Source: Reclinomonas americana ATCC 50394 (taxonomy: Eukaryota). Taken from it: a stretch of DNA of 64,000 nt. The stretch is from contig PS015009.1 in the NCBI GenBank assembly GCA_048213135.1, forward strand, positions 1,054,001 through 1,118,000. The letters run 5' to 3'. Numbering within the stretch: position 1 is the first letter of the stretch; every line of letters begins with the position of its first letter. Positions 43,032-60,049 of this stretch are shown piece by piece. Under the pieces are notes generated by a model. The model was not told where the DNA came from, searched no databases, and saw nothing but the letters and a program-made list of their open reading frames with translations. Both the position numbers and the translations under genes were made by a program.

Positions 43032-43048
43032 AAGTTTAAATTGAACTA

Positions 43049-43693
43049 TTAATTCTTAATACAACGTACCGACAGTCCCGCTTTGTGATTGCATACAACA
43101 CCATAGGCGTAAGCAACGCTGTAATGAAGGGGATAATAAATTGAAGATTGCGGTTGCGTTTCAGAAGCACTCCACCAATTCCCCGATTGGCCTGCTTCTT
43201 TAAATACGCCGTTAAGCCGAATACCCCCGGGCAAGCCTAAGAATCCGCTGCTGTTGCTGGCACCCGTATTAGGCGCTTGCCATAAGGAAGAAACGGCCTT
43301 CATTTTACCGCTTGCAGCCGCGCTGCCACCCAGGTAATTATTCAGAACAAGCCATTCCGCATCGTTTGGGATATGCCACCCGTTGGGTGCCAGGCCTCTT
43401 GGATCACTCACTGCGTACCAGTTATATAATTTACCGTAAACAGCATCATTCGACGGGTCATTGTTATAATAACACCAGGCACCAGTGGTTAATGCCTGCC
43501 ACTGTGTAACATCCGCAACCTGCGGTATAGGATCACCGTTACTATACGTAGTTACATCCAGGTTGTACACAGACCAAACCTGTGTTCCAATGGTCACTTT
43601 TGGAAGATCAGCTGCAGGCGTTTCTTTATTTTTTTTACAGCCAGAGGATAACAAGGCAACCCATGTCAGCAGAAATAACAAATATTTTTTCAT
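43049..43693 (-). CDS. Fibrobacter succinogenes major paralogous domain (FISUMP) lipoprotein
   Basis: IGTQVW..NL, YGKLYNWYAV, PNGWHIP..EW, GFLGLPGG, GLSVRCIK. Confidence 0.93.
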   Translation of the reverse strand: MKKYLLFLLTWVALLSSGCKKNKETPAADLPKVTIGTQVWSVYNLDVTTYSNGDPIPQVADVTQWQALTTGAWCYYNNDPSNDAVYGKLYNWYAVSDPRGLAPNGWHIPNDAEWLVLNNYLGGSAAASGKMKAVSSLWQAPNTGASNSSGFLGLPGGIRLNGVFKEAGQSGNWWSASETQPQSSIYYPLHYSVAYAYGVVCNHKAGLSVRCIKN

Positions 43694-43743
43694 GTATCAG
43701 GCTTTACTTCAGATGTACATACTCATTTCAAAACCTCAACCAC

Positions 43744-44136
43744 TTACGCATTGCTCGGTCCCAGGAAAACAGGTTTCGTCGCTTTTAATTTTTTCCCTTT
43801 AAATACTGAAACAATTACTTCTGCCCTTATAAAGGAATCATTAGGGATTCGACCCGAAATAATCACAGGAGAAGTATTTACCAGCGGTTGATCACTTATC
43901 GGGCGGCATATTGATCCGTTTTTGTTGATTATTACCTTCTTATCAAAATCTACCGGGGATGTAACAAATACAGGTCCTGTGGTCTCTATTCTAAGCAACC
44001 TGACTAAAGATATACTTACAGAACAGTCAAATGTGGGTCGAAGCGCTTCGGCAAAGCCATAGGTCCCATTTAAAGAGATTTTCAAAACAGATCCCTGTTT
44101 TTGATACACTGCCGAAATAATTAGTTCCAGTGCCAT
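43744..44136 (-). CDS. Hypothetical protein
   Basis: 130 aa from ATG 44136. Confidence 0.5.
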   Translation of the reverse strand: MALELIISAVYQKQGSVLKISLNGTYGFAEALRPTFDCSVSISLVRLLRIETTGPVFVTSPVDFDKKVIINKNGSICRPISDQPLVNTSPVIISGRIPNDSFIRAEVIVSVFKGKKLKATKPVFLGPSNA

Positions 44137-44410
44137 AGGGTAATTTTTACAGGTGAAATAATTTACACGAATACACAAAATAATTCGACCCTGTTAAATC
44201 CCCATTGAGCCATTCCCGTATTCCACTTATCTGGTGGCGGAAAACACCAGGCTGGGCTTATTAATACAGGTTGTTAAGCAATGTGATTATTTGCCGTGTA
44301 TTCGCAATTAAGTACTCCAGGTGATGATGACACACACCGGCGACTTAGTGGAAGGATTAACCACAACCAGAGATGGGTTACAGACAACGGCAAACAAGGC
44401 GAAGCTAATT

Positions 44411-44523
44411 CACCAGGTTGGAATACTTGTGCCAGAGAGGGGAAACATGTTGAAAACTATATCAACCCGGACACAGTCCGGTAGAATTTACAGACACCAA
44501 TGAACAGCCAAGGCGGAACACTG
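44411..44523 (+). repeat. Rhs-array hairpin repeat doublet at the distal end (second copy interrupted by IS110 mini-element)
   Basis: GAATACTTGTGCCAGAGAGGGG, 30-bp linker ATATCAACCCGGACACAGTCCGGTAGAATT identical to 54960-54989, then GACACCAATG..GAACACTG. Confidence 0.8.
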
Positions 44524-44778
44524 GCCTTTACTTTGATTAGCAGAGTTTTTATTAACTTTTAAAAAGGAAAGCAGAGGTGAACTATAACACTTGCTAAGCT
44601 TACGACTTAACTGGCGCATCAGTCCTCTGCCTACCTTTTAACTATGTTGAATGGCATCAAATAGAATGTTAGACTTTCAGGTCTATTAAAGGCTTTAATG
44701 CATTTCAACTTTTGTTTTTGCTTAAATCAAATTTATGAAAAATTATGTAGTCACAGTAGGCATTGATGTATCAAAAGC
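44524..44778 (+). mobile_element. Truncated IS110-family mini-element (left end, bridge RNA, first codons of the recombinase)
   Basis: GC dinucleotide at both ends; removing the element restores AACACTG-GC-GCCAGAGG; carries MKNYVVTVGIDVSK. Confidence 0.85.
44560..44710 (+). ncRNA. Predicted IS110 bridge RNA (target-binding and donor-binding loops)
   Basis: Stem AAAGG..GCAGAGG/CCTCTGC..CCTTTT with loop strands AACACTTGC (44586-94) and CTGGCGC (44611-17); stem GTTGAA..GCAT/ATGC..TTCAAC with loop strands ATAGAATGT (44661-69) and TAAAGGC (44687-93). Confidence 0.8.
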
Positions 44779-44794
44779 GCCAGAGGTTCTATAA
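44735..44794 (+). pseudogene. IS110 DEDD recombinase N-terminal remnant
   Basis: MKNYVVTVGIDVSKA then flanking sequence and stop; GIDVSK is the first catalytic Asp motif. Confidence 0.8.
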
Positions 44795-45333
44795 AATAAG
44801 TTGCAGTAAAAATTTCGTGCCCCCTGCAGCAAGTTCTGCATTATTTCTCTTGACTAATTCTAGGCCATTTCTTGAGAATAGTAACTGAGGGTATTCTACC
44901 GATTTAATTAAGAATCGTTTTTTAAACTCTTTCAATATAGTATCTGCCCAGTCCTTAAATCCTTGCTCTTTTTCAACTGCCCTATCATGATCCGAATAAT
45001 ATTTCAAAACATAATAAAGACGGCCTCTTTGTAATTCTTTGTTGCTGTAAGGGTAAAAACCTCCAATATCAAACTCGATACAATAACTCTTAAGTATCCC
45101 TATAAAGTATTTTTCATCTTCCAGATGCTCAATGCTAAGTAGTTTTTCATACTCCTTTTTACAGATATACACTTGAAAAATTTTTTCTTTATTGCTTACA
45201 ATATCATAGCTATTAATAACGCTATTTTTTTTATGTCGCCTTTTAAAATTTTGCAATGCCTGTCATTGAAAAATTTAATGACCTCTGTATAATCATCAGG
45301 CGTGATAAAAAAATTTATTTGCTTGGAATTCAT
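44789..45333 (-). pseudogene. Putative immunity protein, frameshifted
   Basis: ATG 45333 MNSKQINFFITPDD.. joins ORF 44789-45256 across an A8 run near 45225-45232. Confidence 0.65.
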
Positions 45334-45339
45334 TTTATC

Positions 45340-45810
45340 TTATTTATTATACGGTATATAGGTAGGTCTTATGCCAGTAACTTTTTCAACATCATCCATT
45401 GCTTTTCTTTCTCGGATTACTGGGGTTCCATTTTTATTCTGCTTGCCAACTTAAACTTGCTTTGTCTCTCCAGTTTTAGTCTTTGTTCCTTGAACATCAA
45501 TAAAATGCTTATCCTTATTACCTCCTGGTGTTCTGACCATGACTTCTCGTTGTGTTTTGTCATATCCGTCATTTTTTAGTTGCTTCTCGGCTTTATCAAT
45601 TGTTTCCTGATGAGCTTTTCCGCCATTCTTACCATTGGGATTAGGGACCTTATTTCCTGTAACATTAGTAGTTGTTGCTTTAGCTGATACCACGGCTGAA
45701 GCTGCTGCACCGCTTCCAGTTTTAATTCCCGCAGCAGGCGTCGAAATACTTTTAGTATATGTTTGTCTTTCAACAGCAAGATCCATTTGAGCTGCGGAAG
45801 CTCCTCCACT
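45340..45810 (-). pseudogene. Decayed orphan toxin tip (nuclease-like) with internal stop
   Basis: PNPNGKNGGKAHQ..EV.VRTPGG..FIDVQG..QV*VGKQNKNG..RERKAMDDVEK..PYNK; TAA at 45451-45453. Confidence 0.65.
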
Positions 45811-45845
45811 AAGTAATGCCTCTGGATGAGGGCAACATACCCAAT

Positions 45846-45923
45846 GGCGACAGCGGCGCCAGAGGGGTAGGCGGCACGTAGAATTAAACAGTACAGGTAT
45901 CTTGCAAAAAACTTGTGGTAGAG
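45846..45923 (+). repeat. Rhs-array hairpin repeat plus half-site
   Basis: GGCG..CGCCAGAGGGG then GTAGAATTAAAC AGTACAGGT ATCTTGCAAAAA ACTTGTGGT AGAG. Confidence 0.75.
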
Positions 45924-45939
45924 TATTTGTTACTAAATT

Positions 45940-46487
45940 TTATAGCAAGAATTTTTCTAGTGGCTTAAATATAGAGCTAACGCCTTTATTAAGCCCCTCT
46001 TTATACGCCTTCAAATATTTTTCAGATAGTTCGGGGTTCTCGTAAAAGTATAACCTATATAATTCAAATTTTGCATCGTTAATTAGTTCTTTCGCGAAAG
46101 ACTTTCCTCTTGAATATTCTTGCTTTGCAATTACATTTACTCCAAGTTTTATAATTCTTTTAAAACAATATTCGGCAATATGATTTTGATGGCCATATTT
46201 TCTTATCTTACCCATAGTATAAAGGGTCTCTGCATTGTCATCATTTATTTTAAAAGCCTTAATAATATATTTTTCGACCATTCTCCATTTCCTAACATTA
46301 ACTTCTTTACGCATTTTATTACTGCCATCTTCAAAGATACTTTCATCAAAAAAAGTCTGCGCAATACATTGAAGTAAGTAAAATTATTTTTGTACTCTAA
46401 TTTTTGAATATGTGCTCTTGCTTTAGGCGAATCAATTGCAACGACATCTCTATACTTATGAAGTAACAAATCGAATTTATCTATCAT
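45940..46487 (-). pseudogene. Helical (TPR-like) putative immunity protein, frameshifted
   Basis: MIDKFDLL..KNNF joins LLQCIAQTFFDE..MRKEVN via a frameshift near 46380; preceded by a short toxin-tail remnant (..RAREQAAADKKKK). Confidence 0.6.
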
Positions 46488-46579
46488 TGTGTTAGTTTTT
46501 TTTAGTCTCCTTCTTTTTTTTGTCTGCGGCTGCTTGCTCTCTTGCTCTTCGAGAGATTAATAAACTTAATTCACTTGTT

Positions 46580-46891
46580 TTACTCAGACAGAGTCAATTT
46601 ATATAATTTTTTGATAGAGTTCTCATCTTTAGAAACATAGTGCTGAAGAGTATACTCAAAGATTCTCAAATTAATCTGGCCAATATTCTGAAGAATATAT
46701 TTTTCATGCTTATTAAAATTTTCTTCTGTCAGAAAATAACCCTTGGATATATTCGGGTCGCTCTTGAGATCAATATCAAAAATCTCAATAAGATTATTTA
46801 CGGGGATATGCGATATATTCTCATATGCATATACGTTTAAATCCTCTTCACTTTTAAGAGCCAATTCTAAATAAAAAAAATGATATTCCAT
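46580..46891 (-). CDS. Putative immunity protein for the colicin E3-like tip
   Basis: 103 aa, starts 13 bp after the toxin stop. Confidence 0.7.
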   Translation of the reverse strand: MEYHFFYLELALKSEEDLNVYAYENISHIPVNNLIEIFDIDLKSDPNISKGYFLTEENFNKHEKYILQNIGQINLRIFEYTLQHYVSKDENSIKKLYKLTLSE

Positions 46892-46903
46892 TATTTTACG
46901 AAT

Positions 46904-47896
46904 TTAAAAAGCTAATACAGGGCTTAATATTGGTGCCGCAGCTCCATCTGTTGCTATAACAACAACCCACGCTCCTAGTACCGCTGCAACATGTCCCATT
47001 TCTTTTGGAACCTTTGTTCCATATGGAGGAATAATTACTCCAGGAGGAGCTGGGTACGGAGGAGAATTTGACAAGGACTTAAAAAATTCGGAAGTTTTAT
47101 CAACTTGACTAGACCCCTTTCCTAATTCATACCCAAGCGAGGCTCCTGCAAAATCAGGGAATTTTTCTTTCCATTTATCTAACGCTACCGATTTATATGT
47201 TGGCACGCGTTTTTCATCTGCCTCTTTTATCTTTTCACCTGTTTCTGGATCATATGCTCCCTGATGTTTTCCTCTTCTATTATAAACCTCAACTTCCCCA
47301 TGTTGAAAATCCCATTCCGCATGCCAGCCTTTATCTAAACTCCAAGCTGGTCTGGCGCCATTCTTATGTTTAAGTCTTCGTGAATCTTCAAAGCCGGGGA
47401 GTGATTTTTTATACTCCGGAGGAACTGGGTAATAACCTTTGACAGTATCTCCAGGCACCATTCCATCTGAATCTACGAACCTTAATGGATTATTATAGGC
47501 ATAACAATAAGGAGACCATCTTCTACTTTTATCAGACAGGGGGTCAGAAACAAACCATCTTCCAATTTGCCCATCATACATTCTCGCACCATAATCCACC
47601 CATTCCAATCCACTGCCATCGCTAAACTCTTTTCCCTGCTTCTCCTTACCACTATACTGGTATTTATTTTCCATTCCTCCGGCCGCCTTACTACTTATTC
47701 CCGCCATCGTCAACCCAAACGGATAATAATGCGTTTCTTCCAGTAAAGGCCCACGATTATGAATAACTTCTAAATTATCAAAGAACACATCAACGTTGCT
47801 TTCGTTGCTGCAATAAATATACACAAATCCTGTTTTTGTGACCGGCACATTTTGTAAAAAATGAGACTTCAGCCCGCCCGTAGACCCACTGTTCAC
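46904..47896 (-). CDS. Orphan Rhs core/tip with colicin E3-like (Cytotoxic) RNase domain
   Basis: [24 protein letters not shown], then [24 protein letters not shown]; 5' truncated, core homology extends to ~47972. Confidence 0.85.
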
Positions 47897-47990
47897 CGCA
47901 TCAAACCCGGCTGTTACATAATTGAAATGATCATCAAAAAATATGTAATTAATGGCGGCTTTTACATTGTTAGTCGTAAGTCCGGAAGAG

Positions 47991-48035
47991 AGAATTAAAC
48001 GATACTAGTACTCTTGCGGAACACTTGCTCAGAGA
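47991..48035 (+). repeat. Rhs-array hairpin repeat
   Basis: AGAATTAAACGATACTAGTACTCTTGCGGAACACTTGCTCAGAG. Confidence 0.8.
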
Positions 48036-48138
48036 AGAGATTCCACCATTTCTTATAATCGGGTCTGTTTGAATCATAAGGATTATTTTTATCTGGCGGC
48101 CATTTCATAAATGAACACCGCTATTTAGGAATAATACT

Positions 48139-48774
48139 CTACCTTATGGGGAGGTACTTAAAATCAAATACTTCACTAGCTCTGTCACTTAGAACTACCA
48201 TACCGACTTCATTTTTTTGACAGCTTTGCTCATCGACAAATGACAAATATCCAACCATAGCATTTATACTCTTACAAAGCTGATATATAAACTCCTTCCA
48301 AAAAAACACTCCCCGTTTTTGTACTAATGTCTCATCGAAAAAAAGAGTGACTTCTCCTTTATAAGGTGGTTCCGAAACACTTGGCCTTAAAAGCCTATTT
48401 CCAGAACCGCTTTCCCAAATTGGCCCAAAACGATGGTTCTCAATCCGTCCTTCGATTTTATCCTTTTTTACTTTCTTGAAATAGAATGCGCCTCCTGGTT
48501 GGCTGAGCCAACTTATTGGCCCGGCTAACTCATGCTCATTAAATGATCTATTAATTGGCTCATAGGCGTTGCATTTATCAGGTTTTAAAAAACCATTATC
48601 ATAAGTAGAAATAAACCTAATAAGCGTTTCAGCCAAATCATTCCATAATACTTTATTCAAAATAAATTCCGAATAGTCTTTCGATGAAAATTGCACATTT
48701 TCAGACAAATACTTAACAATCGAGTTATCAGTAAAATCTTGTTCCGTAAATATTGTTAATTGTAATTCCGGCAT
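48139..48774 (-). CDS. Orphan putative immunity protein
   Basis: 211 aa AT-rich ORF preceded only by a ~22-codon toxin-tail remnant. Confidence 0.65.
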   Translation of the reverse strand: MPELQLTIFTEQDFTDNSIVKYLSENVQFSSKDYSEFILNKVLWNDLAETLIRFISTYDNGFLKPDKCNAYEPINRSFNEHELAGPISWLSQPGGAFYFKKVKKDKIEGRIENHRFGPIWESGSGNRLLRPSVSEPPYKGEVTLFFDETLVQKRGVFFWKEFIYQLCKSINAMVGYLSFVDEQSCQKNEVGMVVLSDRASEVFDFKYLPIR

Positions 48775-48861
48775 GATTTCTTTTTATTGAGGTCCTATAT
48801 CTGTACGCTTTATAACTTCGGTTTTTGGGATATTCTTTGATATTTTAGTCTTTGTGCCAGC

Positions 48862-48963
48862 GAGATTTCAGCTTGCCTGTAGAACCGCTGTTCACCACAT
48901 CAAACCCGGCCGTTACATAGTAAGATAATCGTTGAGAAATGTCCAGTTCACATATGCTTTGAG
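48862..48963 (-). pseudogene. Rhs pre-core fragment ending at a repeat half-site
   Basis: LKAYVNWTFLND../YVTAGFDVVNSGSTGKLKS abutting TTGTGCCAGCGAG (48852-48864). Confidence 0.7.
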
Positions 48964-49090
48964 TTTAACGCAGACATAGGTTTGGTTGTTTGAAAATAAG
49001 TATTAGGGGCTAGTGATATCAAAAATCGGTTGGTGATAACATCAACCGCAGTAAAGCGAAAACCCTTAATGGGGCTTTGTTGATTATGTA

Positions 49091-49816
49091 CTATAAATAA
49101 TTTTCAAGAACAGCCGATAAAGGAGTTTCTTTATTGTATAGCCTAAAAATCTGTTTGTTTACATCTAAAAATAAGGCGATCTTTTCCCCATTGTAAAATA
49201 AAAAAGGATTCCATGTTTTACCGTCTTTATCGAGTTCCATATGCCACATAAGTTTATTATTATAATTAATAAAAACTTCTCCAATTAAAGCTAAACAATT
49301 GGCAAAATTCTCCCTGTAAAAATGAAAAGGTTTTTCTTTTTGTGCAATTAAGCATTCTACTCTTTTTAATAAATTCTTATCAACTTTAGGGTTATCCTTA
49401 ATATTCAATTTTAATAGAAGTTCTTTAATAAGAGTAAGCCTATTTTTATAAAACTCTTTCCCTTCTTTATTCTTTCCGAACATTACTGTATGAGATATTA
49501 CTTCAGAATAATATCCATCATTCACTACAGCATTAAACTCTTGTTCATTTTCAAACAAAATAGCCTCATCTACTAACTTTAATATTATTTCTTTATTGTC
49601 ATTAATGTATATGTCCCCAGATATATTTCTAGGTACTTTTTCATATTTAGTTAAGACTTTATTGGCAACTAAACTATCAACACTTCCCTCCTTTAATATA
49701 GTTGCAAAAACAAAGTTACCGTTAGTCAAATCATGCAGAACCATATTTTCAGTTTTCATCTGAGAAAAAGTATTTATGTACATACAAATATTAAATATTA
49801 AAAAGAATGCTCGCAT
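49091..49816 (-). CDS. Putative immunity protein with signal-like N terminus
   Basis: 241 aa, starts 5 bp after the toxin stop. Confidence 0.7.
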   Translation of the reverse strand: MRAFFLIFNICMYINTFSQMKTENMVLHDLTNGNFVFATILKEGSVDSLVANKVLTKYEKVPRNISGDIYINDNKEIILKLVDEAILFENEQEFNAVVNDGYYSEVISHTVMFGKNKEGKEFYKNRLTLIKELLLKLNIKDNPKVDKNLLKRVECLIAQKEKPFHFYRENFANCLALIGEVFINYNNKLMWHMELDKDGKTWNPFLFYNGEKIALFLDVNKQIFRLYNKETPLSAVLENYL

Positions 49817-49820
49817 AAAA

Positions 49821-51104
49821 TTAATTTATTAACCTGAATGGCTTTTTCAACTCTGCATCATTGCCAGCCCTTCGAATTAAGGTTGTAGGCATTGTTCCGC
49901 CAACCCCAAGAGTACTAGTAACTGTATTTAATACCGTGACCCCCGAGGAGACTCGGACAGTACCATCACTACTTGTGCTTTGCTCCACCGTTCGTTGCAT
50001 CAATTGTACATTCCTAGAAGTCGCATAATCAATTAACCCCTGGTCGATTTGTGTATTTGCTGGTGTAACTAATGTTAAGTTTGCCATACCCAAATCCGAA
50101 GGTTTTAAAGACGCATCATATACGCCATTTTTAGTGCCGCCGCTCATGTCTGCTAACGCATCAACCATCGTTTGAAGTTGCCCAGGGTTCCATTGATCTT
50201 GTGTCGTAATTTCTGACTTAAATTTAACTTCGACAAAACTGGCTTCTTTAAAAACATATGAATCTTTGGGCTTTCCATTATTATCATATACTATACCAGC
50301 AGAACCCGTAACCATATCAGGTTCGACTTTTGAGGCCCTAGATATACCAGAATATTCTTTGTAATTTTTTTCTCCGTTCAATGAACTTATAACCGCATTC
50401 TCAAATATCCTACCTAAATTTTTTACATCTAGTTTGCAAGCGCCACAGTTTTGCGTAACAACTCCATTTTTAAACCCCAATGCTATTAAGTCAGATGTAT
50501 TAAATGACTTGTATGGCCTATCGTCTGCAGGCTTTGCCTCCATTCCATCAGGGTCTATAAATCTCATTGGATTATTATACGCATAATTGTAGGGGCTCCA
50601 CCGACGCATCTTATCTGACAAAGGGTCAACAGTATGCCACCTTCCTATTTGAGGGTCTTGCATCCTTGCGCCATAATCATACCAATCCAATCCGCTTCCA
50701 TCACTGAACTCGTTAGATTGTTTCTCCTTACCGTTGAATTGATATGTATTTGTGAGAGCACCTGCAGCGTTACTCGATATCCCACTCATTGTTAATCCAA
50801 ACGGGTAATAATGCGTCTCCTCCAGCAAAGGTCCCCTCGAATGTATAACTTCCAGGTTATCAAAGAACACATCAACGTTGCTTTCGTTGCTGCAATAAAT
50901 ATACACAAATCCTGTTTTTGTGACTGGCACATTCTGTAAAAAATGAGACTTCAGCCCGCCCGTAGATCCACTGTTCACCGCATCAAATCCGGCTGTTACG
51001 TAGTTAAAGTGGTCATCAAAAAATATGTAATTAATGGTGGCTTTTACATTGTTACCCGTATTGGGAGGAACGACATTGGTAAAACCCTCGATAGACGTAA
51101 CCAC
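49821..51104 (-). CDS. Orphan Rhs core/tip with putative PD-(D/E)xK nuclease
   Basis: [38 protein letters not shown]. Confidence 0.8.
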
Positions 51105-51234
51105 AAAAAAGTAAGAGATTCATTATTTCATCTCTACGACTCTCTTAAACAGCAACGCATCATCAACATTCCAAAAAAACAATGTCGCTTACAACAATAG
51201 CAAACAATAAAGTTCCCCATTGAAGACTTCTGTA

Positions 51235-51684
51235 TTATTCACACTTACTAAGCGCTTCTTCTAACGCTTTAGAGATTTCTTCTACACTTGCTTTATCTAG
51301 AACTTCTATTCTTTCCTTGGAAACATTTATAAAACCTTTACTTCCTTCGTTTTTCATTGGTGTAAAAATCAATATGTCATTTTTTTTAAGAACACTTACA
51401 TGAATACTGTCTTTGTATAAATCACTTTGCTTTTTTAATCCAATGCTATTTAAAAATTCTTTTGATGATTCTTTCCAGTCTGTTGGGTTAGGTAATCCCA
51501 TTTTACTGCAACTCAAAGCTTGTTTGGTTTGTTTAACCACTTCAGCTAATGTATTATTGCCATTTAGCCAAACAAATGGCTCTGATGCTATACTTAATCC
51601 CATTTGCAAACGTGACAAACTATGGACTAAATATTTGTTCTGCTTTATCAATTTATAAATTGACGCTTGTTGTATTGTTTCCAT
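51235..51684 (-). CDS. CdiI-like (DUF1436-type) immunity protein
   Basis: ALSCSK, G.KKQSDLYK, IFTP, EEISKALEEALSKC; adjacent to the CdiA-like tip. Confidence 0.75.
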   Translation of the reverse strand: METIQQASIYKLIKQNKYLVHSLSRLQMGLSIASEPFVWLNGNNTLAEVVKQTKQALSCSKMGLPNPTDWKESSKEFLNSIGLKKQSDLYKDSIHVSVLKKNDILIFTPMKNEGSKGFINVSKERIEVLDKASVEEISKALEEALSKCE

Positions 51685-51685
51685 A

Positions 51686-52954
51686 TTATTTTACAAACTG
51701 AAGATTAAAATTAATGCCTTTGTCCTTTGCATATTTTATTGCTTCGCTTATTTGTTCCCATTGTTGCAATGATGCTTTTCCTGGCTCTATAGCTACCTGA
51801 AGTGATTTACTTGTGAAGTTAACTCCTTCAGTTGCTGTTACTCCTTCTCTTGTTGCTGTAGTAAAATTGTCCAACTTGTTTACATAGCCTTTCAACGTAC
51901 TTAATAAACCGTTTCCTTCATTATAACTCTTTGCGGTTAAATCAACACTTTTGATACTTGTAGCTACGCCATCAACAAGTTTATCTATAACAGGAAAGTT
52001 CTTGGGCAGGTTACCGCCTAATGCTTTTTCAATCATTAGGCCTCTTTCTAAGCTATTTGTCATCCTCCAAACACTTGATGCACCTCTGAACTCTCCTACA
52101 ATTGGAATAAAGTTTAATACCTTTTCGGTAGTAGAAAGTTTTTCATCTGTAAAAAAATCTTTACCAGTATAAGCTTGGTATATCCACTTGGCAATATTTA
52201 CGCCGGGAATAAAATCAGTAATAATACCAAGTTTTTGAGGCGCTGCTGCGTGATACCCATTTTCAAAAGCCTGTACATTTCTTTTTAATGCCGCAGGGTC
52301 CTTGCTATCTTGAGCTAAACCCATCCGGGCATACATGTGTATGTCAACTGCCTCTAACCCTTCTAATTCAAAATGTGAGGTTACTTTGTTTTCAGAGAAG
52401 GCATACGTACTATTATAAATGAATCGATCTGCAAGAGGGTCTATTTGCCAGAATCTTCCTGTTTGACAATCTTCCATTCTGTATTTGAACTCGTACATGC
52501 TAATGTCAAAGTCATTAGTAAATTCCTGCCCTTGAAATCTCTGTTTCGTATTTTCGAAAACACCTGCCGCCTTAGAAGATATCCCCGCCATCGTCAATCC
52601 AAAAGGATAGTAATGTGTCGCTTCCAGCAAAGGTCCTCTGGAATGTATGACTTCCAGGTTATCAAAGAACACATCAACGTTACTCTCGTTGCTGCAATAA
52701 ATATACACAAATCCTGTTTTTGTGACCGGCACATTTTGTAAAAAATGAGACTTCAGCCCGCCTGTAGATCGGCTGTTCACCGCATCAAACCCGGCTGTTA
52801 CATAGTTAAAGTGGTCATCAAAAAATATGTAATTAATGGCGGCTTTTACATTATTGCTGGCGTTGGGCGGGTTGTTATTGGTAAAAATACCGATCGGGGT
52901 CACTGTACCACCCGTATTGTTATTAAGAATAGTACTGGTAGCGCCATGCTGCAC
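51686..52954 (-). CDS. Orphan Rhs core/tip with pre-toxin TG-like segment and CdiA EC869-like DNase
   Basis: HFELEGL, DFIPGV..TGKDFFTDEKLS, LPKNFPVIDK..GVATSIKSVDL...SY, LKGYVNKL. Confidence 0.85.
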   Translation of the reverse strand: MQHGATSTILNNNTGGTVTPIGIFTNNNPPNASNNVKAAINYIFFDDHFNYVTAGFDAVNSRSTGGLKSHFLQNVPVTKTGFVYIYCSNESNVDVFFDNLEVIHSRGPLLEATHYYPFGLTMAGISSKAAGVFENTKQRFQGQEFTNDFDISMYEFKYRMEDCQTGRFWQIDPLADRFIYNSTYAFSENKVTSHFELEGLEAVDIHMYARMGLAQDSKDPAALKRNVQAFENGYHAAAPQKLGIITDFIPGVNIAKWIYQAYTGKDFFTDEKLSTTEKVLNFIPIVGEFRGASSVWRMTNSLERGLMIEKALGGNLPKNFPVIDKLVDGVATSIKSVDLTAKSYNEGNGLLSTLKGYVNKLDNFTTATREGVTATEGVNFTSKSLQVAIEPGKASLQQWEQISEAIKYAKDKGINFNLQFVK

Positions 52955-53109
52955 CGCTGTATTGGCGCCTCCAGACAGAACTCTTGCTATAGAGGACTTG
53001 TAACTATTTTTATTGCGACTCCTCCATAATAATATTTTTGTTAGAGTCTTCTTTTATATATTCCGTATTTTTAATGCCAAAGGAAATTATTTAAAATAAT
53101 TAAAAATTA

Positions 53110-53673
53110 ATGCCCCCTTTATATCAACTCAAGGAACTTGGCTTTAAGAAGCAATTAGCATTTGCATATCTCACATGTGAACGCCTATTTCCTAATTACG
53201 TTTTTTTTTCCAACAATTTCTCTTTCGGAAACCCTAACTCACTTAGACAAGCTATTACTTCTATTTATCAGTATCTTTTGGGAGAGACATCAGATAAAAA
53301 CAGAATAATTCAAGAAATAAAAGAAACCGAAACTAATACCCCTGATACAAACGATTTTCCAACCATTTTTGTTTCCCCAGCTCTAGATGCATGTACTTGC
53401 ATCTTAGATAGCTTGAATTTTATCTTAGACCATGATTTTAATAATATTGAAAGCATATCTTCATATGGCCTTGAAAGTGCAAGCACTTTAATCCAGGAAG
53501 CAGATAATATTAGTTTAAGCTCTATTTCAGAGTTTCAAGAAAAAATATATCCACATCCTTTGATGCAACAAGAAATTAATATTCAGTCCGGTATAATTAC
53601 TTTTCTAAGTAAGAGTCAGCAGATTGATGCAGATGACATAACAATTTTAATGCATCTTCAGCAAAAGCAATAA
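53110..53673 (+). CDS. DUF416/YjaG-like protein, putative immunity (inverted orientation)
   Basis: QLAFAYLTCERLFPNY..F, PDTNDF..PALDAC, HPLMQQE. Confidence 0.8.
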   Translation: MPPLYQLKELGFKKQLAFAYLTCERLFPNYVFFSNNFSFGNPNSLRQAITSIYQYLLGETSDKNRIIQEIKETETNTPDTNDFPTIFVSPALDACTCILDSLNFILDHDFNNIESISSYGLESASTLIQEADNISLSSISEFQEKIYPHPLMQQEINIQSGIITFLSKSQQIDADDITILMHLQQKQ

Positions 53674-53679
53674 AATCAA

Positions 53680-54816
53680 TCAATTTTTTATTCCCTTTAT
53701 GATGGGTTTAGGTATGTATGTTGATGCTGCAACTGCTTTCATAGAATAGGTTTTTAGAGGGCTGGCTGCTCTTGCACTAGCATTGTCTATTGCAGTGGCA
53801 CAACTAGAACAAATTGGTCGGCTAGCCGCTACTGCTTTTACTGTCATATTATTAGCCTTAGCATAGTTCAAAATCGTAGTTTCTGCATGTCCATCACCTG
53901 ACACAGCCACTTCTCCTTTCTTTAAAGCAGCAAGCTGTGGGGTTCTCAAACTATTTTCACTAAATGAAACTAATATTGTTACTTCCCCTTCAGAATTAGC
54001 GGCAGCTCCTACAGCCGTCGTCGTATATCGTTGAGTTGAAGTACGTAACGATCCTTGTATTTCTGAAGCTCTCAGAAATAGATCTTTACCAGGAGATGCA
54101 GTTCTAAAAGCAGTTCCAGTTACTAAGGCTGCTTCCGTAGGAATTTCAGCTCCAATTAACATAGATGCTGCTGCATGGTAAACTTCGGCAGCAGGCTTAT
54201 TCATTTCCAGCAACCCTGCATTTTGCTGAACAGATCCCTTTAACGCATGCATTTGTTCTGAAATAACTCCTTGCTCTTTATATTCACCAGCATTAGATTT
54301 TGCTAATACTTCGGAGCCATCAAGAAAATCCTTTTTTCCTCCATATAAATTTATAGTCCAGTCCTGTAATTTTTGCGCAAACCATGACTCTAAGCCTTCT
54401 AATTCAACATGGTTCGTTACTTTGTTTTCACTAAAAGCATAAGTACTATTGTAATTATAATCTTCTGAAAGAGGGTCAATTTCAACAAAGCGACCTATCT
54501 GCGGATCATGATTTCTCCACTTAAACTGAACCCAATCCAAATCGAGTTCATCGTCAAATTTCTGTCCCTGAAAGGTTTTTTCCTTATTCTCCATCCCTCC
54601 CGCCACCTTACTACTTATCCCTGCCATCGTCAACCCAAACGGATAATAATGCGTTTCTTCCAGTAAAGGCCCACGATTATGAATAACTTCTAAATTATCA
54701 AAGAACACATCAACGTTGCTTTCGTTGCTGCAATAAATATACACAAATCCTGTTTTTGTGACCGGCACATTTTGTAAAAAATGAGACTTCAGCCCGCCCG
54801 TAGACCCACTGTTCAC
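53680..54816 (-). CDS. Orphan Rhs core/tip with zinc-dependent deaminase domain
   Basis: HVELEGL, then GHAE..ASRPICSSC (HxE..PxCxxC); core homology extends to ~54892. Confidence 0.85.
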   Translation of the reverse strand: MNSGSTGGLKSHFLQNVPVTKTGFVYIYCSNESNVDVFFDNLEVIHNRGPLLEETHYYPFGLTMAGISSKVAGGMENKEKTFQGQKFDDELDLDWVQFKWRNHDPQIGRFVEIDPLSEDYNYNSTYAFSENKVTNHVELEGLESWFAQKLQDWTINLYGGKKDFLDGSEVLAKSNAGEYKEQGVISEQMHALKGSVQQNAGLLEMNKPAAEVYHAAASMLIGAEIPTEAALVTGTAFRTASPGKDLFLRASEIQGSLRTSTQRYTTTAVGAAANSEGEVTILVSFSENSLRTPQLAALKKGEVAVSGDGHAETTILNYAKANNMTVKAVAASRPICSSCATAIDNASARAASPLKTYSMKAVAASTYIPKPIIKGIKN

Positions 54817-54892
54817 CGCATCAAATCCGGCCGTTACATAGTTAAAATGGTCATCAAAAAATATGTAATTAATGGCGGCATTTACATTGTTA
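54128..54892. repeat. ~770-bp near-identical direct repeat of 56163-56928
   Basis: Rhs core plus ~90 post-cleavage codons shared with the full-length gene. Confidence 0.9.
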
Positions 54893-54910
54893 CTCGTAAG
54901 CCCAGAAGAG

Positions 54911-55030
54911 AGAGTTAAACGATACTAGTACTCTTGCAGAACACTAGTATCAGAGAGCAATATCAACCCGGACACAGTCCGGTAGAATTAAACGGCATAA
55001 GTGATCTTGCAGAACACTTGTGCCAGAGAG
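54911..55030 (+). repeat. Rhs-array hairpin repeat doublet inserted in an Rhs pre-core sequence
   Basis: GATACTAGT..ACTAGTATC and GGCATAAGTG..CACTTGTGCC hairpins with TCTTGCAGAA loops. Confidence 0.88.
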
Positions 55031-55088
55031 GGGTCACTGTGCCACCCGTATTGTTATTAAGAATGGTACTGGTTGCGCCATGCTGTAC
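55030..55088 (-). pseudogene. Rhs pre-core fragment
   Basis: VQHGATSTILNNNTGGTVTP, matching the full-length gene at ~56967-57025. Confidence 0.85.
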
Positions 55089-55136
55089 AATCATACTATT
55101 GGAATTGTCAATAGGGCTTCTCAAATAAACTTCTCA

Positions 55137-55760
55137 TTAACCACCTTTTCCTACATCAATCTTAACCTCATTAATAACTGTGCCTTCTGGTAAATCTTTA
55201 ACCTTAAAATATAGCTGTTTACAAATTTCCCAATACACTTCAATATTCCAGATTTCGTAATTATCAATATTATCATCCCCACCTAAAAACAATGGCACTT
55301 TATATCCTAAACACTCATTGTATTTAGTTTCCTGCTGATTAAGATGAAGAAGCACTTGCCTGAAAAAATTTATTGAAAATAAACTATCCATATCTTCTTC
55401 GGTACTAATTTTATGAAAATCAATTATAGTTTGTTGTAATTGAAAAACTTCGTAAGTAGCAGGATCAAACATAAAAATATAATCGTCTTTTATACTAGTG
55501 CAAAAATGTCTTCCCATCCAGTCGAAAGCAAATGGGTAGATCATGTTTTGATAATCGTTAAAATATGACGCAATAATAAATGACCACTTGGTGCTTGTTT
55601 GAAAGGAGTGGACTCGATATAGCCCCTTGTCAAAAGTACACCCTCCATACTGTGATAGCACTTCAAATAAATCATCAGGAAGATTCTTATAGAATGTTTC
55701 ATCTTCTGTCAAACTTTCCTTGGAAGTAACCTTGCCTTTACTAAGAAATGTCGTAAGCAT
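55137..55760 (-). CDS. Tdi1/DUF1851-like immunity protein
   Basis: YGG..F..GLYRVH, FAFDWMGRHF, CLGYKVPLFLGG.D...NYE; directly after the HNH toxin. Confidence 0.82.
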   Translation of the reverse strand: MLTTFLSKGKVTSKESLTEDETFYKNLPDDLFEVLSQYGGCTFDKGLYRVHSFQTSTKWSFIIASYFNDYQNMIYPFAFDWMGRHFCTSIKDDYIFMFDPATYEVFQLQQTIIDFHKISTEEDMDSLFSINFFRQVLLHLNQQETKYNECLGYKVPLFLGGDDNIDNYEIWNIEVYWEICKQLYFKVKDLPEGTVINEVKIDVGKGG

Positions 55761-55762
55761 AC

Positions 55763-58700
55763 TTATTGCTTCTTTATTGGTTGGATTAAAATTACTTTAT
55801 TCACTTTCGAATTGTCTGGCAAATTTTTAATTTGTGATTTTATCTGGCTACCAAAACTACGATTAACACTTTTATCCAAAGCCTGGAGATTATTCAATTG
55901 ATCGTTTCCTCCTAATTGTAACTCCACAATATGATCAACATCATCTGTAGGTTTAACTTGTCCACCTGCTTTTACAAATTTACCGCGAAGATTGGCTTGG
56001 CGTGCAACAGGGTTTTTAGTCACGATAGTTTCTGCCTTTGTCAATGCTTCTGCTTTTGCTTCTGCTTGGGCGATTTGACTTGCGTCCCAAGTTGCTTTTG
56101 CGTTAATAGTCAAATTGACCCCTTGGTATTCGGCCGTTTTAAAGGGTGTTCCTGTTATCAAAGCTGCTTCCGTAGGAATTTCAGCTCCAATTAACATAGA
56201 TGCTGCTGCATGGTAAACTTCGGCAGCAGGCTTATTCATTTCCAGCAGCCCTGCATTTTGTTGAACAGACCCCTTTAACGCATGCATTTGTTCTGAAATA
56301 ACTCCTTGCTCTTTATATTCACCAGCATTAGATTTTGCTAATACTTCGGACCCATCAAGAAAGTCTTTTTTTCCTCCATATAAATTTATAGTCCAGTCCT
56401 GTAATTTTTGCGCAAACCACGACTCTAAGCCTTCTAATTCAATATGGTTCGTTACTTTGTTTTCACTAAAAGCATAAGTACTATTGTAGTTATAATCTTC
56501 TGAAAGAGGGTCAATTTCAATAAAGCGACCAATTTGCGGATCATGATTTCTCCATTTAAACTGAACCCAATCTAAATCAAGTTCATCGTCAAATCTCTGT
56601 CCTTGAAAGGTCTTTTCCTTATTCTCCATTCCTCCCGCCGCCTTACTACTTATCCCCGCCATCGTCAACCCAAACGGATAATAATGCGTCTCTTCCAGCA
56701 AAGGCCCTCTTGAATGTATGACTTCCAGGTTATCAAAGAACACATCAACGTTGCTTTCGTTGCTGCAATAAATATACACAAATCCTGTTTTTGTGACCGG
56801 TACATTTTGTAAGAAATGAGATTTCAATCCGCCCGTAGATCCGCTGTTCACCGCATCAAACCCGGCTGTTACATAGTTAAAATGGTCATCAAAAAAGATA
56901 TAATTGATCGCCGCTTTGACATTATTACTGGCGTTGGGCGGATTGTTATTGGTAAAAATACCGATCGGGGTCACTGTACCACCCGTATTGTTATTAAGAA
57001 TGGTACTGGTAGCGCCATGCTGCACCGCCGTATTGGCCCCGCCGGCTACTCCCAGGAAAGCGGCAATAATATCCGTAGCATTGAGCGGCGCATTATTCGC
57101 TTCGCTTGTAGTATAATAATAACTCTTCCCCAGTATGTTCAGCGTATCGCCTGCCATCACCCGCAGTACCATGCTCATGCCGGTCTTATTGGTACCGGAG
57201 TTCATTTTGTACATTTTCTGGCTGTTGGCATTGGGGCTGCCAAAGGTATTCGGGTTGTTGGTGCCGTTGTCGTTGGTATATGATGGTGAGGTTGTTTTAG
57301 ATTGTACATAGCCCGTGTTAAAGTCGTAGTAGGCCTGCTCCAGCTGAACAGGGCTGCCTGAGCCACTGCCCTCAAGAGTAGCGGTTGGATAATGGTCTAC
57401 CTGCCGCTCTTCGGTAAGCACCACGCGAACATTCCCCAGGTGATCTTTAAGGAAGTAGTCAAACACCGACTCATTCACCCCTGGTTTAAAACGGATCCTG
57501 CCCTCCTCATGGGAGGCAAACTGCAAAGTGTCATTCTTATATTCAAAACCGCTGATGTAGTCGGTTGTTGTAACTACGGCTCCTTCCGTTACTTTTTTCC
57601 GCAGTTTGTTTCCTGAGGCACTGTATGTGTATTCAATGGTGCCTTTCAGCCCTCCCCCGCTGTTGCTCACACGGATACGGTACGGAAGGTTCAGGTGATT
57701 GTAATAAATACTGTCGATCCGTTTATTCTTATCTGCCCTCAGGTTACCGTTGGCGTCATAGAGATAATCATCGTTACTGGTATTGACGTCGGTAAAGTCT
57801 CCCAACTGGTTGTTGGCTGATCCAATGCTGCCATCTTCCGTTACAGAAAGCAGTTTATTGCTGACGCCGCTATTCATATAAGCATAACTCATCTTATCAA
57901 TCACAGAACTGGCATTTATTTTCAGCCCTTTCTGTTTCATGAACAGGATATTGCCATTGGCATCATACCGCATACTGTCAACGGTAAAATCAATGTTGAA
58001 ATTGCTGTTGGAAGGATCCGTAGTGGCCCAGCTTGTTCCGAATCTTTGCGTAAAGGCTGCAGACAGTATCCTGTTTACATTATCATACGAATAGTCAAAT
58101 TTTCTTTTCTCCTGGTCCCCGCCCGATTTCCAGATGGAGCCGCTTATGTTACCGTTAAACTGGGGAGCAGCAAATGTAGTACTGCTTATGGATGCATTGG
58201 ATTTGTCGTACCCCAGTTCATACCCGAACCAATGCGTATTGATCGAGTCCTTTATGTATTCTTTATTAACAGAAGATATCCAGCCCCGGATATTATACTC
58301 GTGCACCAGTTTCTCTGTTACCCCCGATGCTGAATCCCCTACTATTTTATTTTTCAGCTGCCCCAGTTTGTCGTACTGGTTGGTCACGATTGTTTTTTCA
58401 GCAGTTGAAGTAGTATCACCTTTTATGATGCTCTTCATCATCTTTTTGATCTTCAGCAAACGATTGCCATGGTCATATTCCATTTTGGTATGTATCCAGT
58501 GTTCCTGGGAATTTGTACCTGCATTGGCATGTTGCTGAAGAATACGCAAAGGATTCCCAGTCCAGTCATACTGGGTAGTGGTTATATCCTTTCCCCCGGT
58601 AATATTGGTGCTTTGGCTTTGGGATACTTTGCCTTTATCATCATAAAAATTAACCGTATAGAGATACTGGCTGGCAGTTCCGAGCACTTTCGTTCTCATC

Positions 58701-60049
58701 CCGGTCGCCAATCCACGTACAGATACTGTCCCGGCTATACTTTGGGCATATTCCGGGGCCGAGGTGCTGGTATAAAAATAATTGCTGTTGGAGGTATTAC
58801 TGTTATCCAGGCTGCTGCCCAATCCTGTGCCGCTTACCCAGCCATAGGTATCGTAATAGGTTTCGGTAAGTATTTCGTAATTCGTGGTAGTATCAAGGTC
58901 ATTGGGTGCCGGATAAGTGGCAACACTTGCCGCGGCAGACTGGTGTGTTTCCCTGCTGCTGGCATTTGTCCATAAACCGGTCCTTAGCGGGCGTTGTAAA
59001 TAATCGTATTCTGTAACCTGCCATTTTCCTTTCACCATCAGGGCACTGTCCTGCATCATTACCAGCCGGTCGAGCATATCATACACCATTGATACCGGTC
59101 CAGCCCCCGGAACTTTCTTTATGGTCATCCTGTTGCGGCTGTCGTACTCATACCTGAAACAGAGTTCCGGCAACACATTCGCGTTATAAGTGAGGTTCCA
59201 GCTATTGGCGGAGATCAGCTCTACTGCCCGCGGAGGAATAACCAGGCGCAGGTTATTAAAATTGTCATACACATAGTAAGTACTGAACCATCCATAGTGG
59301 CCATCAGACACTGTAGCATTGAACTGTACCCGTTTCAGTATTACCTTCCCTTCCTTATCCTTAAACTCAATGACCCGTTTACCATGCTCATCTATCGTTA
59401 CCGTTTTGAACAATTCTCCTGCACCGTACATAACACTTGTGGTGTAGGTTCCATTGCTGTTCACCACCCAAACCCGTACAGAATCAGCAGCCGTATTAGC
59501 CAGGTATTGATTCTGGATTGAACGATGGCTACCGGGGCTACCCACCCAGCTGTCGCCAGGGGTAAATGTTTCCAGCATCCTGTTTAACGGCGAAGCCTCA
59601 AAACTGGTCTGGCCGTAATAATAATTCTCACCGGGATATTGATTTTGCGAAAATGTTTTCTGCTGCTGAAAAGCGTTGATCTTAAAATTGCCGTCATTGG
59701 TTACATCCGTTCCTGCAGCCGTAGTAATGGATTCATACGGGAGGTATTTGTATACTTCCCGGGCATAGTCATCATAAACCTGGGCCGTTACCATATCCTT
59801 TTGGTCCGGACTGATCTTCTTTATAACCGTCTGCACCGGGCGGCCAAAGCCATCCAGGTATTGTGTCGTTTGTTTTGAGTACCTCACATCTTTTGCCTTC
59901 AGGGAGTCCGCATTGCGTTCGGGCATCGTTGCATCCCAGGTACGTACATAACTAACCTTCGCTCCGCTCAGGTAAGGCGTGGGTGGCGTTACCTGCGCAA
60001 CTGAGGCCAGGCAGGCAAAAGAAAAAAGTATAGAAAGTAAGTGTTTCAT
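55763..60049 (-). CDS. DUF6443/RHS repeat-associated core protein with C-terminal HNH nuclease
   Basis: Signal peptide, YLDGFGRPVQ, YD repeats, [34 protein letters not shown]....NNLQALD..VN. Confidence 0.93.
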   Translation of the reverse strand: MKHLLSILFSFACLASVAQVTPPTPYLSGAKVSYVRTWDATMPERNADSLKAKDVRYSKQTTQYLDGFGRPVQTVIKKISPDQKDMVTAQVYDDYAREVYKYLPYESITTAAGTDVTNDGNFKINAFQQQKTFSQNQYPGENYYYGQTSFEASPLNRMLETFTPGDSWVGSPGSHRSIQNQYLANTAADSVRVWVVNSNGTYTTSVMYGAGELFKTVTIDEHGKRVIEFKDKEGKVILKRVQFNATVSDGHYGWFSTYYVYDNFNNLRLVIPPRAVELISANSWNLTYNANVLPELCFRYEYDSRNRMTIKKVPGAGPVSMVYDMLDRLVMMQDSALMVKGKWQVTEYDYLQRPLRTGLWTNASSRETHQSAAASVATYPAPNDLDTTTNYEILTETYYDTYGWVSGTGLGSSLDNSNTSNSNYFYTSTSAPEYAQSIAGTVSVRGLATGMRTKVLGTASQYLYTVNFYDDKGKVSQSQSTNITGGKDITTTQYDWTGNPLRILQQHANAGTNSQEHWIHTKMEYDHGNRLLKIKKMMKSIIKGDTTSTAEKTIVTNQYDKLGQLKNKIVGDSASGVTEKLVHEYNIRGWISSVNKEYIKDSINTHWFGYELGYDKSNASISSTTFAAPQFNGNISGSIWKSGGDQEKRKFDYSYDNVNRILSAAFTQRFGTSWATTDPSNSNFNIDFTVDSMRYDANGNILFMKQKGLKINASSVIDKMSYAYMNSGVSNKLLSVTEDGSIGSANNQLGDFTDVNTSNDDYLYDANGNLRADKNKRIDSIYYNHLNLPYRIRVSNSGGGLKGTIEYTYSASGNKLRKKVTEGAVVTTTDYISGFEYKNDTLQFASHEEGRIRFKPGVNESVFDYFLKDHLGNVRVVLTEERQVDHYPTATLEGSGSGSPVQLEQAYYDFNTGYVQSKTTSPSYTNDNGTNNPNTFGSPNANSQKMYKMNSGTNKTGMSMVLRVMAGDTLNILGKSYYYTTSEANNAPLNATDIIAAFLGVAGGANTAVQHGATSTILNNNTGGTVTPIGIFTNNNPPNASNNVKAAINYIFFDDHFNYVTAGFDAVNSGSTGGLKSHFLQNVPVTKTGFVYIYCSNESNVDVFFDNLEVIHSRGPLLEETHYYPFGLTMAGISSKAAGGMENKEKTFQGQRFDDELDLDWVQFKWRNHDPQIGRFIEIDPLSEDYNYNSTYAFSENKVTNHIELEGLESWFAQKLQDWTINLYGGKKDFLDGSEVLAKSNAGEYKEQGVISEQMHALKGSVQQNAGLLEMNKPAAEVYHAAASMLIGAEIPTEAALITGTPFKTAEYQGVNLTINAKATWDASQIAQAEAKAEALTKAETIVTKNPVARQANLRGKFVKAGGQVKPTDDVDHIVELQLGGNDQLNNLQALDKSVNRSFGSQIKSQIKNLPDNSKVNKVILIQPIKKQ

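Follow-up and report, generated by a model that had tools for sequence, protein, structure and literature searches.

Hairpin units in the toxin array

The DNA analysed here, referred to throughout as the window, is a 64,000-nt stretch of contig PS015009.1 (assembly GCA_048213135.1, filed under Reclinomonas americana ATCC 50394; positions 1,054,001 to 1,118,000 of the forward strand). From 44.4 to 63.8 kb its minus strand carries a rearrangement hotspot (Rhs) toxin locus in the order RHS-repeat gene, main toxin gene, immunity gene and orphan toxin modules, with broken pieces below position 46500. Our subject is a family of hairpin units that lie in this array. Based on the comparisons described below, we consider it probable that the units are end-pieces, of the repetitive extragenic palindromic (REP) type, of a mobile element linked to a REP-associated tyrosine transposase (RAYT), that they are at the same time the bridge-RNA target of an IS110 element, and that the window holds only fragments of both.

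The initial annotation reported full copies of a hairpin repeat at 45880, 47991, 54911 and 54984, together with partial copies, all in one orientation, and this was confirmed. The pattern TTAAAC-N9-12-TCTTGCRRAA-N8-11-AGAG matched the 64-kb window four times (45884, 47995, 54915, and 54988), each time on the plus strand, and had no match in 100 shuffles of the window. All four full units fall within the DUF6443-RHS orphan-toxin array.

One of these, unit B (54984-55033, +), was identified by the unit pattern and the target scan and consists of a hairpin with arms GGCATAAGTG / CACTTGTGCC and the terminus AGAGAGGGG. It is preceded by a subterminal linker (54958-54983, +) with a small hairpin of its own, CCGGAC-ACA-GTCCGG, which is conserved in 25 units of relatives and whose stem covaries (helix 1); the 28-nt form of this linker, ATCAACCCGGACACAGTCCGGTAGAATT, occurs twice in the window, at 44461 and 54962. 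Unit A (54900-54957, +; unit pattern) comprises half a linker and a hairpin with arms GATACTAGT / ACTAGTATC and is fused to the 5' edge of the first orphan cassette, while at the 5' edge of orphan 4 the half linker AGTCCGG is followed by a unit with a type-A left arm and a decayed right arm (47975-48037, +; unit pattern and target scan). The fourth full unit (45880-45926, stem ACAGGT / ACTTGT with a G:T wobble; unit pattern) follows the partial terminus GGCGCCAGAGGGG, the two together spanning 45853-45926 on the plus strand. That partial terminus (45853-45865) and another at 48852-48866 are weaker and were read directly in the sequence; the latter, CTTTGTGCCAGCGAG, is joined to a 60-nt Rhs core fragment of repeat family D4 (48852-48921, +).

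Unit C is split. Its left part (44466-44525, +), found by the linker search and by a hidden Markov model (HMM; 44448-44524, E 1.8e-7), runs from the linker hairpin to a GC core and includes the left target half AACACTGGC, and its right part (44779-44788, +) begins GCCAGAGG, forms the right target half, and has uninterrupted versions in contigs of other strains (X1 and X3). The 18-nt right arm and terminus ACTTGTGCCAGAGAGGGG is present at 44425 and 55016, the former within a partial unit (44408-44442, +) to which the HMM match was weak (E 2.2). A possible degenerate unit, AGAACTCTTGCTATAGAGGACTTGTAAC, was seen at 52973-53010, just upstream, in gene orientation, of the start of core homology in orphan 2; its 10/14 target match is at chance level.

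The units at 47991 and 54911 share one duplicated 5' homology of two orphan cassettes and are therefore not independent placements, which leaves about five in the window. Relative to the reading direction of the genes, the units stand in place of 36-41 nt of core-coding DNA (IGIFTNNNPPNA), strand a core fragment at 55030-55088, and bring in stops; they are therefore insertions rather than coding variants.

That the arms covary, as had been proposed, proved to be real. Between units A and B three pairs are changed on both sides and one is changed to a G:T wobble, and the imperfect pairing in window units consists of G:T on the plus strand. When 18 units of the window and of relatives were taken together, pairing was seen in 84.4% of cells, compared with 27-34% when the partner is slid, and compensatory changes were found at 9 of 20 pairs compared with 3.9 +/- 1.4 in shuffles. 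These sequence patterns indicate that the unit stem is under structural constraint.

Relatives of the units and an IS110 remnant

Relatives were chosen by DNA polymerase I (PolA) in phylum, family and genus steps, leading to a Bacteroidota genus in which the best C-terminal identity was 91% (201 genomes sampled of 339); Sphingobacteriales as a source of relatives gave just 59-63% PolA identity among the matches listed (401 genomes searched). Blastn of 44380-44800 gave matches in 33 of the 339 genomes of the genus, and about half of the listed matches were the linker and unit C alone. The strict unit pattern had no match in the 339 genomes and is too narrow, because its loop is peculiar to the window's species. 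None of its 65 matches in 185,579 species genomes was homologous on inspection, and none of its four matches in metagenome contigs had hairpin arms: three were one repeated non-hairpin stretch, which we take, from reading by eye and without a family test, to be coding and RNase PH-like, and the fourth was unrelated. In the five nearest genomes there was no match to the IS110 remnant described below or to the units, and a blastn-short comparison of the units with the Rhs loci of the nearest species (G745) returned chance words only.

Fetched loci of relatives, anchored on the linker hairpin, yielded 25 units with one plan: a mini-hairpin CCGGAYACARTCCGG, then CAGAATTAA, a left arm (..CAAGTG), a short or long insert, the right arm GGAACACTTGCGCC, and the terminus AGTGGGG. 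In G863 and G910 a ~250-nt element has the unit as its right end and an inverted copy of it as its left end. These units and those of the window are homologous, and an HMM of five complete elements from two species matched the window at 54967-55028 (E 2e-9) and 44448-44524, in its right-end part only. In one locus (L113, G863:C2, 5098-8966), four complete ~250-nt elements lie within 4 kb in a single orientation, with two small lipoprotein-like open reading frames (ORFs) and a Fic gene between them, an arrangement that looks like a cassette array.

A search for Y1 transposases covered four unit-bearing genomes and found genes beside units. In G910:C222, inverted, outward-facing units at 1174-1310 (-) and 1823-1906 (+) surround a 184-aa ORF (1243-1794, -) that matches the REP-associated tyrosine transposase model NCBIfam NF047646 with 97.4 bits against a cut-off of 80, and G898 has three RAYT copies, each with a unit ~50 nt upstream on the one side that the contigs show. 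The initial annotation's description of the repeat as REP-like is thus upheld by a RAYT gene flanked by the same family in inverted orientation; the co-occurrence with Y1/RAYT genes that it proposed to look for was found in these relatives and not in the window, where tblastn detected no RAYT (E above 8). The RAYT C-terminus (...NEHGLLKIEHL) reappears just inside the right unit of the ~250-nt elements, which are therefore deletion derivatives comparable to the REP doublets forming hairpins (REPINs) of other bacteria. In a further locus (L103, G847:C380, 233-1106), the RAYT shares 71% identity with the G910 RAYT; a unit lies past its 3' end and an IS110 left-end fragment ~125 nt upstream of its start, and IS110 probably inserted there into a RAYT-flanking unit. 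The sole RAYT-like ORF of G745 (L090, G745:C17, 1100-2200) lies between direct copies of another hairpin repeat, GTCGCCTGGTC..GACCAGCGAC. Site counts in five relatives were 19, 8, 9, 1, and 0, with none for a reversed control pattern, and the 19 sites of G914, a largely complete genome, are dispersed along its 2.36-Mb contig C1.

Unit C was described in the initial annotation as a variant copy at 44483 split by the IS110. The interruption holds; the junction lies at 44525|44526 and not directly after AGAATT. The inserted DNA (44526-44778, +) is a 253-nt IS110-derived remnant, recognised by its fold and by 77-86% identity to the left ends of relatives, and contains the left end, a bridge RNA, and 15 recombinase codons (MKNYVVTVGIDVSKA), the only part of an IS110 recombinase gene in the window. 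Ten related IS110 loci were found in the genus, six of them with a full-length transposase ORF, and the two checked against Pfam (L092 and L095) contain PF01548 (DEDD_Tnp_IS110) and PF02371 (Transposase_20). Full elements in relatives measure 1245-1275 bp with a recombinase ORF of 335-343 aa; their left end starts CTTTACTTTG directly past the GC core and their right end finishes CATAGAAT followed by GC. The remnant has the left junction AACACTGGC|CTTTAC and the right junction ...GTATCAAAAGC|GCCAGAGG, with GC cores at 44524-25 and 44777-78. The letters before the right junction are recombinase codons 13-15 and not the native right end, and ~1 kb has therefore been lost, yet a clean core and right-target junction was kept. 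Contigs of X4 and X3 cover this right junction, and the empty site is present in other strains: past 44525, X1 continues GCCAGAAGGG... and X3 GCCAGGGAGA, and the uninterrupted site reads AACACTGGC|GCCAG...

The left-end RNA of the remnant forms two stem-loops with internal loops in a single fold, and in a consensus fold of nine sequences (the remnant and eight relatives) both were kept, with compensatory changes at 5 of 30 pairs. The only strongly variable columns were the two sides of the first loop, which are the left and right target guides (LTG and RTG). Rfam gave no match up to E = 1 over 43000-56000. We assigned the guides by the geometry given in the published description of bridge RNAs (PMC11208160), in which each loop pairs through its 5' side with the bottom strand and through its 3' side with the top strand, the core belonging to both. 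Placed on the fold (+), this geometry puts the LTG at 44586-44594, the RTG at 44611-44617, the left donor guide (LDG) at ~44661-44668, and the right donor guide (RDG) at 44687-44693. The LTG is AACACTTGC and the RTG CTGGCGC, predicting the target AACACTTGC|GCCAG; the RDG TAAAGGC is the reverse complement of the GC core plus the left-end start CTTTA, and the LDG AUAGAAUG matches the native right end ATAGAATG(C). As far as its sequence indicates, the bridge RNA of the remnant looks intact.

Of the 23 intact units in relatives, 16 contain the predicted 14-nt target without a mismatch, while two match it 13/14 and one 12/14. In the window the match is 13/14 at 55013 (55013-55026, in unit B), 12/14 at 44422, 13/14 at the rebuilt insertion site (read by eye from its two flanks), and 10/14 at 54940 and 45908, and the LTG half AACACTTGC is matched 9/9 at 48020-48028. 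These figures reproduce those given earlier, except that the 10/14 matches carry no weight, since 65 sites of the window reach 10/14 compared with ~36 in base-shuffled sequence.

The claim that the units are the bridge-RNA target was further strengthened by the relatives, whose guides change with their own flanks. The LTG matched its own left flank at 6-9 of 9 positions in all 11 elements (mean 8.1, compared with 5.8 for foreign flanks), and the RTG matched its own right flank 7/7 in six of seven elements and 6/7 in one. In L097 (G824) and L098 (G977), close relatives of this IS110, the target loop is reprogrammed to ATGAGCGGC / ATCCCGC, and both elements are inserted in another repeated site that matches it (..GAGCGGC|GGGAT..). 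In L099, guide and flank alike contain AACACATGC, and L091, L094, and L095 have CATACTTGC-type guides and lie in units with arms CAAGTA/TACTTG. Arms and LTG accordingly change together, CAAGTG/CACTTG occurring with AACACTTGC, CATGTG/CACATG with AACACATGC, and CAAGTA/TACTTG with CATACTTGC. A separate 80-nt IS110 remnant was observed in L100 (G860:C3, ~1500-1590), where the left end extends to the LTG-encoding DNA (AACACTTGC) and is fused directly to the right target half (GCCAGTGGGG); from this sequence, the DNA for the guide of the element itself seems to have been used as a target half-site.

The toxin array and its differences between strains

The array into which the units are set begins with a gene for a 1240-aa RHS-repeat protein (60071-63793, -; Pfam RHS_repeat, at cut-off), upstream of the main DUF6443-RHS polymorphic toxin gene (55763-60049, -; 1428 aa by translation; Pfam DUF6443, E 1e-35) and its immunity gene (55137-55760, -; Pfam T6SS_Tdi1_C and SUKH-1). 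The stranded Rhs core fragment VQHGATSTILNNNTGGTVTP (55030-55088, -), recognised by comparison of translations and belonging to repeat family D9 (93% identity; second copy at 52896-52954), abuts the outer terminus of unit B, and an X4 contig joins inside it. The orphan modules follow the plan of Rhs core end, toxin tip, and immunity gene, and have in common a 300-nt core end at 85-96% identity. Orphan 1 (53680-54899, -) was defined by repeat family D2, domain search, and translation as a core end with a toxin tip, and is followed by a DUF416 gene on the strand opposite to the array (53110-53673, +; Pfam DUF416, E 2e-28). Cassette 2 (51235-52954, -; orphan 51686-52954) contains by Pfam a PT-TG and an EC869-like contact-dependent inhibition (CDI) nuclease domain with a CdiI-like immunity gene, cassette 3 with its downstream gene (49091-51104, -; orphan 49821-51104) was read from its translation and has no Pfam family, and cassette 4 (46580-47896, -; orphan 46904-47896) contains a colicin-like Cytotoxic domain (Pfam) and a small downstream gene. 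At the distal end, immunity-like reading frames at 44789-45330 and 45940-46487 are broken by frameshifts, and the distal cassettes are decaying.

To compare strains we used contigs of four runs (X1, X3, X4, and X5), each covering 30-53% of the stretch; unless a contig spans the gap, uncovered parts are hints of absence only. Strains differ in this array: cover was absent or almost so over 53021-54523 in all four runs and over 45005-47509 in X1, and it was nearly absent over 48011-50515 in X4 and X5 and over 51517-54523 in X3. Over 300 nt, the toxin tips of orphan 1 (54098-54397) and of the main gene (56133-56432) show 95% identity, and, given the poor cover of the orphan 1 region in the other four strains, this looks like a recent local duplication in the window's strain.

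The two joints with long clean sides, both in X4, fall in Rhs core homology, one from 52931 to 55066 (side of 109, eight shared letters, within the 59-nt repeat D9) and one from 51071 to 52875 (side of 51), and the majority of the rest are found near 50660-50700 and 56620-56670, within the conserved core end. Joints at units were also present, from 55032 to 44463 in X1, and in X3 from 55031 to 50661 and, with ten letters between, from 44525 to 54958; their sides of 33-41 letters are in repeated sequence and may reflect repeats. The question of whether breakpoints fall in core homology alone is therefore answered in the affirmative for the cleanest joints and in the negative for some contig joints of X1 and X3.

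Among 13 unit loci in five relatives, one has an Rhs homologue within the fetched flanks, namely G898:C492, in which an Rhs module is immediately followed by a RAYT element; neighbours elsewhere include glycosidases, a Fic protein, lipoproteins, a DDE transposase, and a gene that is presumably ftsY-like (read by eye, not by family search). With this single locus and with the G914 sites spread along a 2.36-Mb contig, the enrichment in Rhs loci across genomes that the initial annotation proposed to test for was not found; its suggestion that units mark cassette edges holds in this window. Its further suggestion that units drive the gain and loss of cassettes found no backing either, as the cleanest strain differences join in the Rhs core and the window has no RAYT or IS110 recombinase; based on these data, we concluded that a role as driver of cassette exchange is not supported and is improbable. 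In G745, solo ends from another hairpin family occur at three orphan edges (L081, G745:C5, 6455-6595, 8375-8515, and 10200-10340); that family is a ~150-nt inverted-end element whose 65 sites are dispersed over the genome, many of them in inverted pairs ~120 nt apart. Hairpin debris at orphan edges thus recurs, and its accumulation in dispensable, presumably non-expressed DNA fits at least as well as a dedicated mechanism.

Origin of the units and comparison with known systems

In the explanation that we consider probable, the repeat would be the ~50-nt terminal hairpin, with a subterminal mini-hairpin, of a small mobile element whose full form, as in other species of this Bacteroidota genus, would be a RAYT (HUH/Y1) gene between two inverted units, with REPIN-type inverted-end elements of ~250 nt as its deletion derivatives. 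The RAYT would mobilise the units, and what the window retains would be solo or tandem end-fragments on one strand, in the spacers and at the 5' edges of presumably silent orphans downstream of the DUF6443-RHS toxin gene, where they may have gathered because the DNA is dispensable. An IS110 lineage would take the 3' arm of the hairpin as its cognate site, its bridge RNA reading AACACTTGC on the bottom strand through the LTG and GCGCCAG on the top strand through the RTG around the GC core, and the hairpin may assist this targeting. One such IS110 would have entered unit C at 44525|44526 and later lost everything from recombinase codon 15 to the right terminus, leaving a remnant with little besides its bridge RNA. 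Nothing shows the units to be movers of toxin cassettes, and the window holds dead fragments only.

Several observations weigh against this explanation. The comparative evidence comes from other species of the genus; units A, 47991, and 45880 carry the loop TCTTGCRRAA, seen in no other searched genome, and their membership of the family is argued from their architecture and from flanks in common with unit B. The 0-19 sites per genome in the five relatives are low for REPs, classic examples of which are described as often exceeding 100 copies per genome (PMC2817692), and the three RAYT copies of G898 are more insertion-sequence-like than a typical single-copy RAYT. Passive accumulation also fits less comfortably with window units that all point one way at cassette edges and with solo ends at the same relative place in G745.

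These last observations favour the view that the units are active recombination sites by which the orphan array is built or reshuffled, through RAYT nicking or through full- or half-match recombination with bridge RNA that cuts the cores variably. In agreement with it, unit termini abut Rhs fragments that are cut differently (window positions 55030 and 48862, and 50661 in a contig of X3), three orphan 5' edges have a unit in a single orientation, the unit at 47991 combines a type-A left arm with a type-B-like right arm, the X1 and X3 joints described above fall at units, the RAYT element of G898 directly follows an Rhs module, and half-match recombination has been reported for IS621 in the account cited here (10.64898/2026.08.31.748434). 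We nevertheless find it doubtful: the two long-sided joints and most of the remaining ones lie in Rhs core homology, the unit joints have short sides that are possibly repeats, orphans 2 and 3 lack a clear unit at the 5' edge, the junction at 47991 and 54911 is common through duplication, 12 of the 13 unit loci in relatives lack an Rhs homologue, and neither kind of recombinase is in the window. Two extensions of this view were considered. It is unlikely that the units are portable joints, at which a RAYT or bridge recombinase truncates cores at arbitrary points and docks core-end, toxin, and immunity modules, the array then being built also by site-directed recombination. Mini-elements reduced to their bridge RNA would arise if the recombinase acted on internal element DNA that resembles its own donor or target half; in the present remnant this DNA would be ATCAAAAGC of the recombinase gene, and in L100 the DNA encoding the LTG.

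Two further explanations draw on the structure of the units rather than on their mobility. As functional RNA or transcription elements (terminators, insulators silencing the orphans, or sources of plus-strand antisense RNA) the hairpins would account for the covarying stems with G:T tolerated on the plus strand only, for the terminator-like linker hairpin on the gene strand (54982-54968), and for their position between an immunity gene and the next cassette. This is very unlikely given that 43000-56000 has no Rfam match up to E = 1, that the large hairpins have 10-11-nt loops and no T-run, that one of 12 terminator-like sites lies in a unit (7.2 +/- 2.6 sites expected), and that units of relatives at the ends of transposase genes and in unrelated intergenic places explain the structure without a host function. 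Integron attC sites have core sites of the form RYYYAAC ... GTTRRRY. The prospect that the units are attC-like sites of a gene-cassette array is all but negligible: conserved flanks with a variable but paired stem, the position at cassette boundaries, and the four G863 elements in 4 kb, in one orientation and with small ORFs between, recall such arrays, but checking by eye found no R''/R' core-site pair in the units, the G863 copies are complete inverted-end elements and not single sites, and units flank a Y1 transposase and not an integron integrase. The attC and terminator readings were therefore rejected, the former for the missing R''/R' pair and the Y1 partner gene and the latter for the single terminator-like site in a unit.

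If the units are end-pieces of a RAYT-linked element targeted by IS110, the pairing of IS110 with REP targets known from Proteobacteria would extend to a Bacteroidota genus, although this IS110 lineage might already stand among the natural IS110 targets in the supplementary tables of PMC11208160. The joint change of left arm, right arm, and LTG would provide a compact natural data set for bridge-RNA programming, and remnants cut exactly at the core would be candidates for natural products of half-match recombination. A stem-loop again lies 5' of the target, as the account of ISPpu10 reports, and this suggests that a structural gate may be general. For Rhs biology the result is a caution, as repeats at cassette edges can be nested debris of mobile elements and need not be exchange machinery.

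The units resemble the REP/REPIN-RAYT systems of E. coli and Pseudomonas, as described in PMC2817692, PMC3116915, and PMC3337134, in being short imperfect palindromes, in flanking a Y1/HUH REP-associated transposase with inverted copies, in forming non-autonomous doublets of two inverted units, and in tandem clustering. They differ in their Bacteroidota genus, in the 0-19 sites per genome (five genomes), in a second, subterminal mini-hairpin, in ~250-nt doublets retaining part of the 3' end of the RAYT gene, in three RAYT copies in one genome, and, for the window, in having solo ends only and no RAYT. The IS110 part resembles IS621, ISPpu9, and ISPpu10, IS110-family elements whose available descriptions report bridge-RNA insertion into REP or stem-loop-bearing repeats (PMC11208160, 10.64898/2026.03.19.712850, PMC8450116); a left-end RNA with target- and donor-binding loops, a 9-nt LTG and a 7-nt RTG that each include the core, a target in a repeated palindrome with a stem-loop 5' of the cut, and the lack of inverted ends all agree with those descriptions. 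On the other hand, the core is GC, where IS621 as described there has CT, and the host phylum is different. Moreover, the 3' arm of a hairpin associated with a RAYT provides the target, the window copy is a 253-nt remnant without recombinase, and another remnant (L100) is cut exactly at the LTG-encoding DNA.

With respect to the array itself, Rhs orphan arrays, or arrays of displaced C-terminal tips, exchange toxins by homologous recombination in the core. The present locus is like them in having a main DUF6443-RHS gene followed by core-end, toxin, and immunity modules with core ends that are 85-96% identical, and in strain differences that join in core homology, and is unlike them in that three orphan edges are REP end-fragments replacing 36-41 nt of core.

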